Both the position numbers and the translations under genes were made by a program. Of a stretch of 32,000 nucleotides of DNA, positions 2 to 14,743 are shown piece by piece. The DNA lies in the NCBI GenBank assembly GCA_963716945.1, contig OY970322.1:480001-512000 (forward strand). The letters run 5' to 3'. The stretch's first letter is position 1. Every line of letters starts with the position of its first letter. The notes beneath the pieces were generated by a model. The model worked only from the letters and a program-made list of their open reading frames with translations. It ran no database searches and had not been told where the DNA came from. Origin of the DNA: Candidatus Saccharimonadota bacterium. Lineage in GTDB: Bacteria; Patescibacteriota; Saccharimonadia; Saccharimonadales; UBA4665.

Positions 2-1552
<1,551 letters not shown>

Positions 1553-2851
1553 TTGCGCCACACTGTTACGGAAGCCCGCCTTAACAACGGCGCCCGGGGG
1601 CTGCTGATCCATATTCCGCACGCTTCGGTCATGACCGTCGACATTAATTTCCGGGCCGGCGAATACCTGGTCGAGCCTGACAAGTGGGAAGTGCCGCACC
1701 TCATGGAACACGTTTTGCTGGGGGCCAACGAGCTGATTCCGCGGGCCCGCGACTTCCAGGCCGAACTCGAGAAAAACGGCGCTTACAGCAACGCCACGAC
1801 TGGTGTTTACGACATTAATTACGAGGCCGAATGCGCCGACTTCGAGTGGGACCGGGTGCTTGGCTTGCTGCTGGTGGCGATCACCAAGCCGCTGTTTCTC
1901 GAGGAAGAATTCCGGGCCGAGTTCGGCAATGTCCAGGAGGAAATGGCGGCCCGCAGCAACAACCACTTCCGCCGCTTGAGCCTGGAGATGCGCGGGGCTT
2001 TCGGCCTGATTGCCAAGACCGACACCGAGCGTTTGGAGCTGATGTCCAATGTCAACGTCGATGACGTCAGGGAACATTACGAGCGCACGCACTATGCTTC
2101 CAATATGCGCTTTGTCATCGCCGGCAACCTGTCGGCCAGCCGGCGGGCGGCGATTACCTCGCTGCTCGAAAACATTGATTTACCGGTCGGCGAGCGGCGC
2201 TTCGATTTGCCGCAGGAGCGGCCGGAACGTCTAGAGCAGCCGGTTTACGTGGCCAATGACACCGTCGAGAACCTGTACTTCTATATTGATACTTTCATGA
2301 ACCGCCGGCTGGCCGACCCCGAAGTCGACGCCCTCAGCCTGGTCAACACCATGCTGACCGAAACGCTGTACTCCAAGATACTCGGCACCGCCCGCGAGCG
2401 CGGCCTGGTTTACGGCATGAACTCCGGCCTCAGCCAAACGCGCGATGCCAGCAATTGGTGGTTCGGCGCCCAGGTATCGGACAAAAACGCCCAGCCGCTG
2501 CTGCAGATAATCGTCGACGAACTGCTCAAAGTCAGGGCGGGGGACATCACCCGCGACGAAATCCAGGCTACCAAACAGTACGCCCTCGGCCGCTTCCAGC
2601 GCAGCGCCCAGACGGTTGGCGGCACCGCGGCCGGCTACGCCGGCCGCTACTTCTTCGATGGCGTCATCGACGACTATTACCACTGGCCGGCCCGCATCCG
2701 GGCGGTCACCAAACAGCAAATCGTCGACATCTCTAATTCCATGTTCGCCCCCGGTATCTGGGGCTTCGGTACGCTCGGCAATTGCGGCCCGGAATTCGCG
2801 GCCGAACTGCAGGCCCAGATCAGCGGCCTATGGCTCCAGCGCCCTGATTAG
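1553..2851 (+). CDS. M16 (pitrilysin) family zinc peptidase
   Basis: HxxEH zinc motif (HLMEH, residues 49-53) in the expected N-terminal position. The 432-aa length fits the family. The TTG start directly abuts the secA stop (TAG-TTG), suggesting translational coupling. Confidence 0.85.
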   Translation: MRHTVTEARLNNGARGLLIHIPHASVMTVDINFRAGEYLVEPDKWEVPHLMEHVLLGANELIPRARDFQAELEKNGAYSNATTGVYDINYEAECADFEWDRVLGLLLVAITKPLFLEEEFRAEFGNVQEEMAARSNNHFRRLSLEMRGAFGLIAKTDTERLELMSNVNVDDVREHYERTHYASNMRFVIAGNLSASRRAAITSLLENIDLPVGERRFDLPQERPERLEQPVYVANDTVENLYFYIDTFMNRRLADPEVDALSLVNTMLTETLYSKILGTARERGLVYGMNSGLSQTRDASNWWFGAQVSDKNAQPLLQIIVDELLKVRAGDITRDEIQATKQYALGRFQRSAQTVGGTAAGYAGRYFFDGVIDDYYHWPARIRAVTKQQIVDISNSMFAPGIWGFGTLGNCGPEFAAELQAQISGLWLQRPD

Positions 2852-4324
2852 GGTAGGTAACTGGTCTTCCGGCTTGGCCTTTAGAATTAGCGGCGAGGTT
2901 TCCCGTTTATAAGCCAGCAGACGGCCGGTAATGGTATTGGCGCTGCCCTCGGGCGTTTGCACGTAATCCCAGAACGCTTGCAAGTGTTCATGGTAGGTTC
3001 TGATCAGCCTGTCTCGGAATTCTTTGGGATCCATACCCTTGGGCCGCACCATGGCCGAAGGCGCCAGCCGCCGGATTATCTTGGCCTGGTCCCGGTCCAA
3101 GGTGGTCATGCTAACCATATCCTCGGGCGCGTCGCTAACAGCCGAAATGCCCAGCATGCGGCCCGGCACGCCTAGGTCGTATAACGCTACCTGCAGGTCG
3201 AGGGCCTTCTGCCTGAGCCCGGTGTCTTCCAGGGCGCCGGTCGACGTCGATAATATGTGCTCGGCTATGGGCAGCTGCTCCGGGTCCATAATTTCTTCGA
3301 TGATCCTGATGCCGGTGTGGGTTTTGGTTTGGTGGGCGGGGTCATCCAGCCCGGCCTCGGCTATCATATATAAGCCGTCTATGAACTTCTTCGGCTGCTC
3401 AGCGGCAATTTTCTGCATGGTGGTCGACAGGACTTCGCGGCCGGTAGACATGACCATGACCAGTGCCCAGTCGTGGACGTCGTGCTTGGTCGATTTATCC
3501 AAGTCATCGACCGTCAAATCGGCTTCCAGCCGGTAAGCTATGTCCATCCAGCGGCTTGCCAGTTCCGGCGACAGTTCCGCCGGGGAATAGAAACTCTTGA
3601 GCACGACCTCCAAAACATCGCACATTATCCGGTTGGCATAAGCGACAGACGGGTTTTCGGGCGTCGCCTGGTGGCCGCCGCCATCGTCGATTAACCTGGC
3701 GACCATCAAGTCGTTAAGCATGATGGCGGGGTCATACATATATTGCCGGGCCCGTTTGGCGACGTTCGCCTGGTAGGTTTTATTGCCTTCGTTAGTGGCC
3801 AGGCTGCCGTCATCACCCTCGCTTATGACGAGATCTTTACTCAACAGTATAAAGCTCGAGGCGTCCAAAGGCTCGGCCGTGCCTTTGGGGACGAAGCCTT
3901 CGATGGTGGCAGCGACAGAATGCTCGAACCGGGACCGGTAGGCGGCCTGCTGCGCTTTTTGTTTGGCGAGCTCCGATTGGATGCCTGACACGGCAACCGC
4001 GGCGCCGTTTTCGGCGGCCACCCGGGCCGCGGCGCTGGCATAGGATTCGCCGGTTTCGGTCCGGGCCGCCCGGACTTCTTCTTGGCCCTTAAACCTGGCA
4101 TGGGCCCGGTTAATATTGCGGCGCAACGCCGAATCTTTGGGTCCCAGCGCCTGCCGTTTCAGCCATTGCAGGCCGGCGAAAGCCAGGCTGCCGTCAATCG
4201 GCTCTTCCAGCGCCCTGGCCTTGGCCTCGTTCGGGTGCAGGGAAAGGAAATAAGCCGACTCCAGCCCTTCGACCACGGCCCGGCTGCTGACAAAACCGTT
4301 TTCCGGCCCGACCATGGCGAACAT
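2828..4324 (-). CDS. Hypothetical protein, paralog A of a tandem pair (ORF as called from an internal Met; see 4325-4517)
   Basis: 498-aa ORF with multiple blocks of similarity to the 4615-6081 product (for example QPKKFIDGLYMIAEAGLDDP vs QPDQFIDKAYMIAQQGLDPE, and TGRLLAYKRE vs YGRLLAFNET). I recognise no domain. The 3' end overlaps the convergent M16 gene by 24 nt. Confidence 0.8.
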   Translation of the reverse strand: MFAMVGPENGFVSSRAVVEGLESAYFLSLHPNEAKARALEEPIDGSLAFAGLQWLKRQALGPKDSALRRNINRAHARFKGQEEVRAARTETGESYASAAARVAAENGAAVAVSGIQSELAKQKAQQAAYRSRFEHSVAATIEGFVPKGTAEPLDASSFILLSKDLVISEGDDGSLATNEGNKTYQANVAKRARQYMYDPAIMLNDLMVARLIDDGGGHQATPENPSVAYANRIMCDVLEVVLKSFYSPAELSPELASRWMDIAYRLEADLTVDDLDKSTKHDVHDWALVMVMSTGREVLSTTMQKIAAEQPKKFIDGLYMIAEAGLDDPAHQTKTHTGIRIIEEIMDPEQLPIAEHILSTSTGALEDTGLRQKALDLQVALYDLGVPGRMLGISAVSDAPEDMVSMTTLDRDQAKIIRRLAPSAMVRPKGMDPKEFRDRLIRTYHEHLQAFWDYVQTPEGSANTITGRLLAYKRETSPLILKAKPEDQLPTLIRALEP

Positions 4325-4517
4325 CGACGATTCGGCCGTGACGACGTAGTCTCCTTCGCCCGTGCCTTTGGTGAAGCCCGGATTGCTGGAATAGGCTACA
4401 TGTGGCGGCTTGGCCTGCGGATCGGTCCAGGCATCATAGCCGACATGGTCAAATCGGTCGCGGGGGGGGGGTCAAACCACTACTATCCCCTATGGGTTCC
4501 AGAACTTCAGCACTCAT
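4325..4517 (-). other. Displaced 5' segment of paralog A: promoter-proximal ATG (4517) and 64 codons separated from the main ORF by a 1-nt frame offset at the C10 tract
   Basis: The main frame is open upstream to 4471 with no start codon. ATG 4517 opens MSAEVLEPIGDSSGLTPPP and then terminates at 4449-4451. Deleting one C fuses the two frames into about 562 aa, with an N-terminus that parallels paralog B. Confidence 0.7.
4462..4471. repeat. G10 homopolymer (C10 on the coding strand), nt 47-56 of the reconstructed paralog A CDS
   Basis: Counted directly: c + 9 g in block 4461-4470, plus g at 4471. It is the longest homopolymer I noticed in the window. Confidence 0.95.
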
Positions 4518-4527
4518 ATAAACATCA

Positions 4528-4556
4528 ATTAAAGCATGAATAGCCTCATAATGCAA
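4528..4556 (-). promoter_or_regulatory. Promoter of paralog A: TTGCAT-17-TTTAAT, whose last two spacer bases plus C form the TGC of an extended -10 (TGCTTTAAT); 10 nt to ATG 4517
   Basis: Minus strand reads TTGCAT (plus 4551-4556) and TGCTTTAAT (plus 4528-4536). The same TGCTTTAAT module lies upstream of paralog B. Confidence 0.6.
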
Positions 4557-4614
4557 CACCTAGCCATCCGTCCGGCCCCGGATTGAAGCGCCATGGCTTT
4601 TCCCGAGCGGCAGG

Positions 4615-6081
4615 TTAGTGCCTTGTTGCCAAGCGGTGCAGGAAGCGCCTAAACGGCGCCTTTAGCGCTGCACGCATTAATTCAGCATACTGCCTTTCTT
4701 CAGTTTCGTTAAAGGCCAAAAGACGTCCATAAAGAGTGTCCTTTTTGCCGCGCGTCGTATTCACGTATTTCCAAAATGAATCTTTCGGACCGGTGAAACC
4801 GATATCGCTCCTCAGCAACTCTTCCGGTACGCCTAACTTCCCCAGTGTCAGCTTAAGGTCAAGGGTACGCATTGCGGTTCGGCCGTCGCTGCCCTCTCTT
4901 AGATAGAGGCGGGGCAGGCGGCTCTTGGCGCCCAAGCCGTATTTGAGGATGGAGACGGTTATATCCACCTTTGCGCGGTTTTCGGGGTCTAGGCCTTGCT
5001 GCGCTATCATATAGGCCTTGTCAATGAACTGGTCTGGTTGCCGTAGGGCGACGCGGTGCAAGCTTCTGGCCAGAATTTTGCGGCCGTGCAACATTGCCAA
5101 GCCGGTCGCCGAATAGCCGTTAGCAATGCCGTCCTGGCCTAGAATGTCGGCCGTTTCAGTGGGCGATATGTCGGCCGGCAAGGGCCTTGCCAGCTCCAGC
5201 CATTTAGCCACGGTTTCGGCGGTTAGCTGGTCTGCTACATATACTCTTTCCATCAACATGTTAGACAGGGCTGAGAATATCGCGTCGATGCCGGCTTTTG
5301 ACGGATCATCGCCAGCCTGTTCGCTGGCCATGCGGACCGCTTCGGCACGCAATAACGTCAGCACCTCAAAATCATTGACCAATAGCTGAGGGTCATCCAT
5401 AAAGGTTTCCGTCTGGCGGGCAAGCTCGGTCTTGAAACCTTGCTTGGCATGGACGGAAAAATCACGACCCGAACGGTCTATGACCAGCTCTTCGCTTAGG
5501 GCCGTGAAGTTACCGAAGTCCAGGTGAGGAGAGTCCTCGCGAACTTGGCCGATCATTGTCCGGAAACGCTCGCCGTAGGCGGCCTGCCGCTGGGCTGTGG
5601 TTTCGCGGTTGCGCCTGTCGGCCGCGCTAGCGGCGGCTTGCTCGATCGCCAATTCGTCTCGTTGCGCCGCTACATGCCGGTTGTAGGCCTGGGCGCGCTG
5701 GCGGGCCGGCAGCATGGACTTAGCGCCCAATACGGCGTGCCACAGGTAGGGATGGCTATCCTCTGAGACATAGTCTCTCAGCCAGCTCAAGCCGGTTTTA
5801 GCTCCGTCGAAGTCGAAATCATCCGGATGAGCGGCTTTTACGTGGCCTTCCGCTTCGGCGTTCTCGGGATGATCTTCCACATAAACGGCGTCCATGGCTG
5901 CCACCAGGCCGGGCCGGTTAAACATTGACTGTCCGGCTGATTTTATGGGGTGGTCCGTAGGGACCAGCTCTAACGGATCAGGGTGCAGGGTAACGACTAC
6001 CAGCGAGCGGGCGGCCCAATAGTCGACATAGTCTCTATGGTCTTGAAGCATCTCTTGGTAACTATCTGGACCGGCACGCAT
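4615..6081 (-). CDS. Hypothetical protein, paralog B of the tandem pair
   Basis: 488-aa ORF homologous to paralog A along most of its length. No signal peptide, TM segment or known catalytic motif recognised. Visibly AT-richer than the flanking genes. Confidence 0.85.
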   Translation of the reverse strand: MRAGPDSYQEMLQDHRDYVDYWAARSLVVVTLHPDPLELVPTDHPIKSAGQSMFNRPGLVAAMDAVYVEDHPENAEAEGHVKAAHPDDFDFDGAKTGLSWLRDYVSEDSHPYLWHAVLGAKSMLPARQRAQAYNRHVAAQRDELAIEQAAASAADRRNRETTAQRQAAYGERFRTMIGQVREDSPHLDFGNFTALSEELVIDRSGRDFSVHAKQGFKTELARQTETFMDDPQLLVNDFEVLTLLRAEAVRMASEQAGDDPSKAGIDAIFSALSNMLMERVYVADQLTAETVAKWLELARPLPADISPTETADILGQDGIANGYSATGLAMLHGRKILARSLHRVALRQPDQFIDKAYMIAQQGLDPENRAKVDITVSILKYGLGAKSRLPRLYLREGSDGRTAMRTLDLKLTLGKLGVPEELLRSDIGFTGPKDSFWKYVNTTRGKKDTLYGRLLAFNETEERQYAELMRAALKAPFRRFLHRLATRH

Positions 6082-6093
6082 AACTAAGTGTTA

Positions 6094-6122
6094 ATTAAAG
6101 CATAAAATATGTTCTAAAGCAA
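6094..6122 (-). promoter_or_regulatory. Promoter of paralog B: TTGCTT-17-TTTAAT, whose last two spacer bases plus C form the TGC of an extended -10 (TGCTTTAAT); 12 nt to ATG 6081
   Basis: Minus strand TGCTTTAAT corresponds to plus 6094-6102, and TTGCTT to plus 6117-6122. It is divergent from the prfB promoter. Confidence 0.55.
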
Positions 6123-6148
6123 GGAACAGGGCTTTATAAAGATGAGCT

Positions 6149-6157
6149 TGCTATACT
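6149..6157 (+). promoter_or_regulatory. Extended -10 promoter of prfB (TGcTATACT), 7 nt before ATG 6165
   Basis: TG at 6149-6150 and TATACT at 6152-6157. No Shine-Dalgarno sequence can fit in the remaining 7 nt. Confidence 0.6.
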
Positions 6158-6164
6158 TTGAGAT

Positions 6165-7250
6165 ATGGAAGAACAGCGTAAACAGGCCGGAGCTTTGCAG
6201 TCGCAAATCAATCAGGCTGCAAGCCGGCTCAAAATTGATAGCCTTGGGCAGCAGCTTGAAGATCTCCAGGCCGCCAGCCGCCAGCCCGGTTTCTGGGACG
6301 ATTCGGCCAAGGCCCAAGGGGTGATGAAGCAGATCGCCAAGCTCGAAGACCGGACCAAGCCCTGGCTGGCGCTGCAGAAGGCGATCGAGGAAGTTAACGA
6401 ATTGCTCAAGCTTGGCGATGCCAGCCTGGCTGAAGAATTGGCGGTCCAGCTCCGGCAGGCGCAGGAGACGTTTGACGGGCTGAAGGAAGAACTGAAGTTC
6501 AACGGCCCATATGACGGGCATGACGCCATCGTCAGCATCTATGCCGGCGCCGGCGGCACCGATGCTCAGGATTGGACACAAATGTTACTCAGAATGTACA
6601 GCCGCTATTTCGAAAAAAACAGATGGAAGGCGACTACCGTAGACGAATCGCCCGGCGACGAAGCCGGCCTGAAGAGCATCACGCTGGAGGTCGAAGGGCC
6701 GTTCGTTTACGGCAAATTGAAGGGCGAGCACGGCGTCCACCGGCTGGTGCGGCTCAGCCCGTTCAATGCCGACAACTTGCGCCAGACCAGTTTCGCCAAA
6801 GTCGAAGTCATGCCCAAGCTGGACCGGCCCGACGACCTCCAAATCGACGACAAAGACCTAAAAGTCGACGTTTACCGCAGCGGCGGCCACGGCGGCCAAT
6901 CGGTCAACACCACCGACTCGGCCGTCCGCGTGACCCATATCCCGACCGGCCTGACAGTCGCTATCCAGAACGAGCGTTCGCAGCTCCAGAATAAGGAAAC
7001 CGCCATGACCATCCTGCGCTCGCGGCTGGCCCGGCTGCAGATGGAACAGCACGCCGAAAAACTCAGCCAGCTGAAAGGCCCTAACCAATCGGCCGAATGG
7101 GGCAACCAGATTCGCAGCTACGTCCTCCACCCCTACAAACAGGTCAAAGACCTGCGCACCAAATACGAGACCTCGGACCCCGACGCCGTCCTCGACGGCG
7201 GCCTCGACCCGCTGGTTAACGCTTACCTGGAACATACCCTCGAATCGTAA
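6165..7250 (+). CDS. prfB: Peptide chain release factor 2, uninterrupted ORF
   Basis: SPF tripeptide (LSPFNADNLRQTSFA) specific to RF2, the GGQ motif (SGGHGGQSVN), and 361 aa. No internal in-frame stop or +1 frameshift site. Confidence 0.95.
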   Translation: MEEQRKQAGALQSQINQAASRLKIDSLGQQLEDLQAASRQPGFWDDSAKAQGVMKQIAKLEDRTKPWLALQKAIEEVNELLKLGDASLAEELAVQLRQAQETFDGLKEELKFNGPYDGHDAIVSIYAGAGGTDAQDWTQMLLRMYSRYFEKNRWKATTVDESPGDEAGLKSITLEVEGPFVYGKLKGEHGVHRLVRLSPFNADNLRQTSFAKVEVMPKLDRPDDLQIDDKDLKVDVYRSGGHGGQSVNTTDSAVRVTHIPTGLTVAIQNERSQLQNKETAMTILRSRLARLQMEQHAEKLSQLKGPNQSAEWGNQIRSYVLHPYKQVKDLRTKYETSDPDAVLDGGLDPLVNAYLEHTLES

Positions 7251-14296: not shown

Positions 14297-14743
14297 ATGA
14301 GCAGTATGGAAGAACCAGCCTCTAGCCCCGCCCCCCAGCCGATTGCCGAACCCGCCAAAGATACCTCCAAAAACCTCCAGCGTATCCTCCTCGTCGAAGA
14401 CGACGACGCCCTGGCCAATGTTTACGTTACCCGGCTCCAGGCCGAAGGCTTCGACGTCCGCCGAGTTAACAACGGCGAAGAGGCCCTGGCGACCGCTCTA
14501 AGCTACAAGCCCAATCTGATTGTCCTCGATGTCATGATGCCCAAAGTCAGCGGCTTCGACGTCCTCGACATCCTGCGCAATACGCCGGAGACGGCCAACC
14601 TCAAGATCATCATGCTGACCGCCCTCAGCCAGGCCAGCGACCAGGAACGCGCCAAATCCCTCGGCGCCGACGACTACCTCGTCAAATCCCAGGTCGTCAT
14701 CGCCGACGTCATCGACCGCATCCGCCACCACCTCGGCAGCTAA
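14297..14743 (+). CDS. Single-domain CheY-like response-regulator receiver (canonical residues intact); ORF track start 14063 rejected
   Basis: LLVEDDD, IVLDVMMP (phospho-Asp), IMLTA and YLVKS are all present, and there is no output domain. The longer ORF overlaps pyrG in another frame. ATG 14306 is an alternative start, 7 nt after a candidate TTGCCA-17-TAACAT promoter. Confidence 0.85.
   Translation: MSSMEEPASSPAPQPIAEPAKDTSKNLQRILLVEDDDALANVYVTRLQAEGFDVRRVNNGEEALATALSYKPNLIVLDVMMPKVSGFDVLDILRNTPETANLKIIMLTALSQASDQERAKSLGADDYLVKSQVVIADVIDRIRHHLGS

Follow-up and report, generated by a model that had tools for sequence, protein, structure and literature searches.

The subject of this analysis is a stretch of 32,000 nucleotides (nt) from the genome of a Candidatus Saccharimonadota bacterium (contig OY970322.1, positions 480,001 to 512,000; the whole of this stretch is hereafter called the window) and, within it, a gene of the minus strand that we refer to as gene A. 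A run of ten cytosines (C10) lies just inside its 5' end. A preliminary description of this DNA, made from the letters alone, had proposed that this homopolymer separates gene A from its own start codon, and it had considered a contingency locus, a rescue through slippage and an assembly error as possible reasons. The comparisons with orthologous loci reported here reveal one gene with a conserved start codon and a conserved run of nine cytosines (C9) where the window has ten. A slipped-strand phase-variation switch that is currently in its OFF position is the leading explanation for this arrangement, and we put it forward tentatively. The features of gene A are the following, and the four lineages mentioned among them are that of the window and those of its orthologs.

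2828..4517, minus strand: gene A in its whole extent; 562 codons if the tract has nine C, here a 22-codon 5' piece and a body in the +1 frame
4515..4517, minus strand: ATG assigned as the true start of gene A; the four lineages align from this ATG through the first codons (MSAEV/MSLE)
4462..4471, minus strand: homopolymer of ten C (ten G on the plus strand), nt 47-56 of the coding sequence; orthologs have nine C at the homologous site
4449..4451, minus strand: premature TGA at which the 22-codon peptide of frame 0 ends when the tract has ten C
4322..4324, minus strand: ATG of the 498-amino-acid database protein P0001, corresponding to the internal Met65 within the conserved SMF motif

Reading frames and orthologs of gene A

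Read on the minus strand, the frame that opens with ATG 4517 encodes MSAEVLEPIGDSSGLTPPPRPI over 22 codons before it meets the TGA at 4451-4449. The +1 frame is open from position 4471 onward (PPPRDRFDHVGYDAW...), and its earliest ATG, GTG or TTG is ATG 4324. The preliminary description had reported both the short frame that runs into ten cytosines and stops at 4449-4451, and a main open reading frame (ORF) that is open to 4471 and lacks any of these three codons before Met 4324; the minus-strand reading agrees with it in every coordinate. The ORF that starts at this methionine (2828-4324, 498 amino acids) is the one listed for the window, and the same call is found in NCBI, ENA and Logan (P0001). 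Deletion of a single cytosine produces an ORF of 1689 nt with 562 codons, matching the protein of about 562 amino acids that had been predicted to arise when the two frames are fused by a change from ten to nine C. The length of the tract toggles the frame: C10 gives the 22-amino-acid peptide, and C9 gives a 562-amino-acid ORF that is collinear with its orthologs. At the peptide level, the junction GLTPPRDRFDHVGYDAWTDPQAK is predicted for the ON state or for a +1 shift, and the OFF peptide is predicted to end in ...GLTPPPRPI.

When the fused protein was searched against 5.8 billion protein clusters, four entries were recovered, namely P0001 itself and the three orthologs P0002, P0003 and P0004 (562, 560 and 563 amino acids; 76, 64 and 57% identity). 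The orthologs are uninterrupted proteins that match the fused protein over its whole length (100%), on either side of the tract. The same four proteins were also all that two profile searches of the 5.8-billion-protein index recovered, and the family was widened only by an exhaustive HMMER search that yielded 49 family representatives (50% clustering). Most of these representatives begin with MS.E... and carry the motif AYSSNPGFTxG, which is located in the window between the tract and Met 4324. Furthermore, S64, M65 and F66 are invariant across gene A, its orthologs and paralog B, a second family member encoded in the window. The GTDB representative genomes were scanned for a protein pattern and for the DNA pattern of the conserved promoter, in both cases without a match, and a scan of JGI metagenomes re-found only two loci that were already known. 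The family is known so far only from syntenic loci resembling those of Saccharimonadales.

Since the orthologs span both pieces and a family motif precedes Met 4324, this methionine is not the start of the gene. We regard it as essentially certain from these alignments that gene A is a single gene from 2828 to 4517 in which Met 4324 is internal; the 498-amino-acid database protein is, by the same comparisons, a truncated call. The proposal of one gene of about 562 codons that begins at ATG 4517 and is split by one extra cytosine is thus borne out by the orthologs.

The contrary view, that the annotation is right, would make Met 4324 the start of a protein of 498 amino acids and the 190 nt upstream of it a non-coding leader with a chance run of cytosines. 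The public call P0001 does begin there, and the B-type ortholog P0024 is called from the equivalent methionine. Nevertheless, this view is hardly credible and we reject it. Within the SMF motif, Met 4324 is an internal residue that does not vary, and the peptide encoded by the 64 N-terminal codons is conserved both among the orthologs and in the family, with a ratio of nonsynonymous to synonymous substitution rates (dN/dS) of 0.21 relative to the closest ortholog (L002), as expected under purifying selection. Moreover, a conserved promoter-like region is found at 4528-4556, not upstream of 4324, and the ORF of P0024 in reality begins further upstream, at an ATG with a promoter of this kind next to it. 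The preliminary description had itself accepted a start at Met 4324 in the event that the upstream codons were not conserved in orthologs; the comparison of the orthologous loci that it had recommended excludes this, since these codons are conserved, and every ortholog has C9 at the homologous position.

Parallels between the N-termini of the fused protein and of paralog B had also been pointed out. They hold at the level of motifs, since a MAFFT alignment of A, its orthologs and B has invariant columns at W30, S64-M65-F66, H94-P95..A98.A100 and G115-L116.W118-L119; a significant BLASTP alignment, in contrast, begins only at residue 189.

Promoter-like elements and conservation of the tract

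Three promoter-like features of the window are relevant to the placement of the start codon.

4528..4536, minus strand: extended -10-like element TGCTTTAAT, 10 nt upstream of ATG 4517; invariant in all ortholog loci
4551..4556, minus strand: -35-like hexamer TTGCAT, preceding the TTTAAT hexamer at a distance of 17 nt; the same in every ortholog locus
6094..6122, minus strand: promoter-like element of paralog B, consisting of TTGCTT, 17 nt and TTTAAT with an upstream TG, 12 nt before ATG 6081

The extended -10 element that had been noted at 4528-4536 is present as described, exactly 10 nt upstream of the ATG. The sequence TGCTTTAAT occurs twice in the 32 kb, upstream of gene A and upstream of paralog B, versus 0.17 occurrences expected, and the pattern TTGCNT-N14-TGNTNTAAT has matches in the window only upstream of these two genes. 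A motif common to the family, TTGC(A/T/G)T-N14-TGCTTTAAT, is separated from the start codon by 10 nt in A, 12 nt in B, 13 nt at locus L011 and 17 nt at locus L010. At the latter two loci (approximately 2960-2988 in L011 and 923-951 in L010), the same element precedes family members that are 25-32% identical to A, and the family member of L010 possesses it despite a different genomic context. A scan with the strict sigma-70 consensus did not call a promoter for gene A. On the basis of conservation and position, we consider that the gene is probably transcribed from this element. The short distance between the element and the ATG suggests an mRNA that is leaderless or nearly so, and the conservation of the motif possibly reflects a regulator shared by the members of the family.

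Leaderless or near-leaderless mRNAs would explain why gene callers misplace start codons in this family. In public calls, P0024 and P0065 begin too late, at the internal methionine of an MFN sequence; the ORF at L009 (231-1601) has 19 more codons upstream and reaches an ATG beside the promoter. Conversely, P0072 (L012) and P0073 (L013) start too early, with 13 and 10 extra codons, respectively, that extend into the promoter region. We also considered the possibility that the B-type orthologs starting with MFN are frameshifted and rejected it, as the L009 ORF simply continues upstream to its ATG. Whatever the truth about the tenth cytosine, the public annotation should be corrected to a gene A at 2828-4517 with a frameshift, and the misplacement of starts by gene callers concerns the family as well.

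The tract was compared at the DNA level in seven independent ortholog assemblies from three species-level lineages: four assemblies with a mutual identity of 99.8-100% (L002, L003, L004 and L012), two of a second lineage (L005 and L013) and one of a third (L006). It consists of exactly nine cytosines, in frame and at the homologous position, in 7/7 of these assemblies. The synonymous divergence (dS) between lineages amounts to 0.86-1.8, and of the four-fold sites at invariant residues, only 24/87 have the same base in all four lineages. The codon phase in which the tract is read differs between lineages, with ACC CCC CCC CGC/CTC in the window and L002, TTA CCC CCC CCC AGC in L005 and GCG CCC CCC CCC GTG in L006. 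The proline codons of the tract are CCC in 10/10 instances; in 22 genes of the window, CCC is a minor codon with a share of 29% (102/350) of all proline codons, and CCC-CCC is used in 0/19 of the other Pro-Pro pairs. Similarly, among the 19 invariant proline columns of gene A, it is only at the two columns of the tract that CCC is found in all four lineages. The N-terminal peptide that flanks the tract is poorly conserved and predicted to be disordered.

Because synonymous divergence is saturated, the codon phase has shifted, the proline codons are CCC only and the flanking peptide is poorly conserved, passive inheritance of the tract is unlikely. Its conservation at the nucleotide level is well supported by these alignments, and the retention of C9 appears to result from selection on the DNA sequence, not on the protein alone. 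The distant family members at L009, L010 and L011 have neither a C tract nor two consecutive prolines at this position; its origin therefore lies in the ancestor of the A clade, and it has been retained since. The same absence from both protein and DNA of the distant members led us to reject a family-wide poly-proline motif. A further candidate, an RNA structure in which the C run pairs with an upstream GGGG, was discarded as well: the 5' 81 nt of the mRNAs from the four lineages have no shared structure and fold no better than shuffled sequences (z-scores of -0.1 to +1.6).

The tract is also an outlier in its surroundings. Neither the window nor any ortholog locus contains another G/C run of at least 7 nt. 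For the window, a first-order Markov model predicts 24 G/C runs of at least 6 nt, and two are seen (the tract and one C6 at 14331-14336), which corresponds to a depletion of about 12-fold; runs of at least 10 nt are expected 0.15 times per 32 kb. Under the same model, G/C runs of at least 5 nt are found 18 times versus 85 expected, and the longest A/T run of the window is an A7 at 6613-6619.

The tenth cytosine and its possible causes

The tenth cytosine is found in two assemblies of one sequencing run; the collections searched yielded no further data set of this species, and a literature search with the run accession gave no paper that names it. Logan contig L001 (4537 bp, run ERR11523672) is the exact reverse complement of positions 2386-6922 of the window, with agreement at 4537/4537 bases, C10 included. 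In a Pfam scan of window ORFs, the domain matches extend over almost the entire domain length and no further interrupted gene was noticed, so the quality of the consensus can be taken as high. All in all, we lean toward a C10 that is real. If so, the frameshift would be either recent or reversible, given that the gene is otherwise intact and does not differ from the orthologs in its promoter and start.

The reading that we prefer as the leading one can be laid out as follows. Gene A would be transcribed from the TTGCAT-17-TGCTTTAAT promoter, with its ATG almost at the 5' end of the mRNA. Its codons 16-19 contain an uninterrupted C run, 9 nt long in every orthologous lineage and presumably kept by selection at the DNA level, and runs of this type are hot spots for slipped-strand mispairing during replication. 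The gain of one C in the window (C10) would halt translation after 22 codons and thereby turn the gene OFF, and the loss of one C or the gain of two would turn it ON again, so that C9, C12 and C6 would all represent ON states. The OFF state may be slightly leaky through +1 ribosomal slippage of tRNA-Pro on CCC-C, with a product identical to the C9 protein. Such a switch would presuppose that C10 is the true majority allele of the population, that changes in tract length are fast and reversible, and that the switching is adaptive.

Several observations weigh against a switch, and a number of them speak directly for a homopolymer miscall, in which the organism would really possess C9 and an ordinary intact gene of 562 codons, with P0001 truncated through an assembly error. 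All 7/7 ortholog consensus assemblies, including four samples of one species, have C9 in frame, and the window genome is the sole exception; gene A is otherwise intact and under purifying selection. Both C10 assemblies stem from the same run, ERR11523672, and a systematic platform bias at a C run of 9-10 nt would affect the two alike. At 1,099,440 bp, the source contig is in one piece, which suggests a long-read assembly, where homopolymer indels are the main residual error, and runs of at least 10 nt are described as still problematic in nanopore R10.4 consensus sequences (PMC9262707). On the other hand, R10.4 consensus sequences are reported to be correct for the vast majority of runs below 11 nt (PMC9262707), and reading ten C where there are nine would be an over-call. 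C10 is repeated, over 4537/4537 bases, in the independent k-mer assembly made from the raw run, and no second interrupted gene was noticed in the window ORFs checked. Taking these data together, a miscall is a quite possible explanation and a serious rival to the switch.

Other points against a switch concern the protein and the codons. In searches of Pfam, NCBIfam, PADLOC, PHROGs and PDB sequences, the gene A protein has no significant match, it has no signal peptide, and no recognizable domain or fold ties it to surface, host-interaction or restriction functions. An AlphaFold model built with 45 family sequences predicts a confident all-alpha protein (predicted local distance difference test, pLDDT, 81; predicted template modeling score, pTM, 0.67). 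Its first approximately 70 residues are of low confidence, with residues 1-46, 50-52, 57-63 and 65-71 below a pLDDT of 50. Foldseek comparisons of both AlphaFold models with PDB and BFVD returned generic helical-repeat noise only (best E-value 0.036; template modeling score, TM, <=0.23). In addition, the conservation of CCC could serve another purpose, for instance a translational pause at the poly-proline stretch.

The gene might also be a young pseudogene, that is, carry a real frameshift at its most mutable site that is tolerated as the intact paralog B covers the function. The window represents the only genome seen with both an A-type and a B-type gene, the other slots recovered between prfB and the M16 peptidase gene hold one family gene, and paralog B, itself intact, is preceded by a copy of the family promoter. 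When measured against outgroups, dN on the window branch is slightly above that on the L002 branch (0.252 vs 0.202; 0.329 vs 0.307). Yet no second lesion is present in the 1.69 kb of gene A, its promoter and start are intact, and whole-gene dN/dS values of pairs that include the window copy (0.156-0.196) are no higher than those among intact orthologs (0.206-0.264). We consider a pseudogene unlikely, with the reservation that a one-base change at C10 reverts easily and is hard to separate from an OFF phase.

Finally, the C10 gene could normally yield the full-length protein by recoding, either through +1 frameshifting on CCC-C or through slippage of RNA polymerase. The tract contains overlapping CCC-C sites at which tRNA-Pro re-pairs perfectly in the +1 frame, and the shift would give exactly the C9 protein; in E. 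coli, +1 shifts at CCC-C, which is a slippery site, amount to about 1% (PMC4519876). The orthologs are nevertheless in frame, which speaks against a conserved need for a frameshift, and the frame-0 stop of gene A lies 12 nt beyond the tract and does not adjoin the shift site as it does in prfB. The 5' mRNA offers no shared structure and, as described above, folds no better than shuffled sequence. Known cases of bacterial transcriptional slippage involve A/T runs, which likewise counts against such a route. Leakiness at the percent level is likely, but it would not amount to a mode of expression. The slippage rescue envisaged in the preliminary description is consequently disfavored; as a conserved mode of expression we reject recoding, and in any form it seems very unlikely to account for this locus.

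The slipped-strand switch, to which we now return, would make the locus work like a contingency locus: judged from the sequence, it combines a mutable tract in the 5' coding region, toggling of the reading frame and retention of the repeat beyond neutral expectation. The suggestion of a contingency locus is strengthened by the persistence of C9 in all orthologs despite saturated synonymous divergence, and it is weakened by the finding that all seven of them have the same length, with C10 in the window alone. The closest parallels are the poly-G/C contingency genes of Campylobacter jejuni, Neisseria meningitidis and Haemophilus influenzae (PMC8355987; PMC5084427), in which a tract of 9-10 nt is likewise positioned in the 5' coding sequence, a change by one nucleotide switches between a full-length product and a short peptide, and the tract is an outlier in the genome that is kept between relatives. 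Unlike in these pathogens, the relatives considered here all have C9, the locus is known from consensus sequences, and there is one such tract in 32 kb. Furthermore, the window derives from a Saccharimonadales member of an environmental metagenome and not from a host-adapted pathogen, and the product has no recognizable surface, glycosylation or restriction function.

A second parallel is offered by the 7C tract of glpK and other loci of Mycobacterium tuberculosis (PMC10334774; bioRxiv 10.1101/717272). There, too, a coding C run is found in a GC-rich genome in which long runs are rare, and a cytoplasmic, non-surface protein is toggled by the gain or loss of one C. In M. tuberculosis, however, variants have been recorded across thousands of isolates and reversion was shown experimentally, whereas the OFF length has been seen once in the case of gene A. 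Homopolymeric tracts at the 5' end can also serve as reversible off-switches, as exemplified by the 5' poly(A) of inlA in Listeria monocytogenes, which was proposed to be an efficient means of inactivating the gene reversibly (PMC2831843). Gene A resembles inlA in the position of the homopolymer at the extreme 5' end and in the very short peptide that results (8 amino acids in inlA, 22 here); inlA differs in that its poly(A) of 7 nt is found in some strains only and its reversion frequency was measured, while the poly(C) of 9-10 nt studied here is conserved across species-level lineages. With the programmed +1 frameshift of prfB, the gene for release factor 2 (RF2), gene A shares the need for a +1 shift from C10 and a slippery run with perfect re-pairing. 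It differs from prfB in that this need is not conserved in the orthologs, no stop codon lies beside the shift site, and no Shine-Dalgarno-like stimulator is present immediately upstream.

Paralog B, the prfB/M16 slot and the possible role of a switch

Gene A is positioned between prfB, which is divergent, and an M16 peptidase gene, which is convergent, and it shares this interval with a second gene of its family.

4615..6081, minus strand: paralog B, 488 amino acids, intact and without homopolymer; a deeply diverged variant of the same family

The two proteins are 27% identical (BLASTP E-value 7e-27), and B has 64% identity to the sole family gene in the same prfB/M16 slot of another member of the Saccharimonadales; B is, by this measure, not a recent copy of A. 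L002 and L011 have the same order as the window, FtsX-FtsE-prfB-family gene-M16-SecA, and on the shorter L005 contig M16 and SecA are seen on one side, with a match to prfB on the opposite one. When the slots were compared (L002, 6001-7689; L009, 231-1601; L011, 3001-4611), every other locus recovered with the slot had one family gene in it, and the window has two, A and B in tandem. Gene A and the M16 peptidase gene converge, and their 3' ends share 24 nt (2828-2851), an arrangement that is also seen in L002-L005 and L013. The prfB gene itself (6165-7250, plus strand) is an uninterrupted ORF of 361 codons from MEEQRKQAG..., as in the orthologous loci, and the autoregulatory +1 frameshift site known from many bacteria is not apparent in it.

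The genes of this neighborhood have diverged to different extents between the window and L002. The M16 peptidase (1553-2851, plus strand) and the C-terminal part of SecA (38-1552, plus strand) are 96.5 and 96.7% identical, respectively; RF2 is 85.6% identical and gene A 76%. In the genome with the B-type gene, SecA is about 92% identical to that of the window, and the occupant of the slot is only 27% identical to A. Such a distribution suggests that the slot is a hot spot with alternative "alleles" that have been joined in the window by duplication or recombination, and the divergence of the slot gene, much faster than that of its neighbors, follows a pattern typical of genes under changing selection. 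It is conceivable, though doubtful, that a long-kept poly-C switch in one clade of the Saccharimonadales toggles the A-type of two variants of this lineage-specific gene, A and B, both of which are present in the window, with A being OFF.

Should the tenth cytosine turn out to be miscalled, the interruption of gene A would be an ordinary annotation artefact, and the conserved C9 tract would remain as a curiosity. If C10 is real, gene A is a candidate for a slipped-strand phase-variable gene in the candidate phyla radiation. Full-text literature searches yielded no description of simple-sequence phase variation in Saccharibacteria. A switch at this locus would represent a mechanism of a known kind in a lineage and a gene family in which it has not been described before and, as far as the literature searched shows, the first contingency locus on record for the candidate phyla radiation. 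Cultured Saccharibacteria depend on host bacteria, and such a dependence is assumed for the organism studied here. With its own conserved promoter and, in most of the loci examined, a fixed chromosomal slot, the family to which gene A belongs is a candidate for a variable factor. If the switch is true, this uncharacterized family would be marked out as a likely variable factor in a host-dependent lifestyle, and genomes of about 1 Mb with few regulators could vary through the stochastic on/off switching of a fast-evolving gene.

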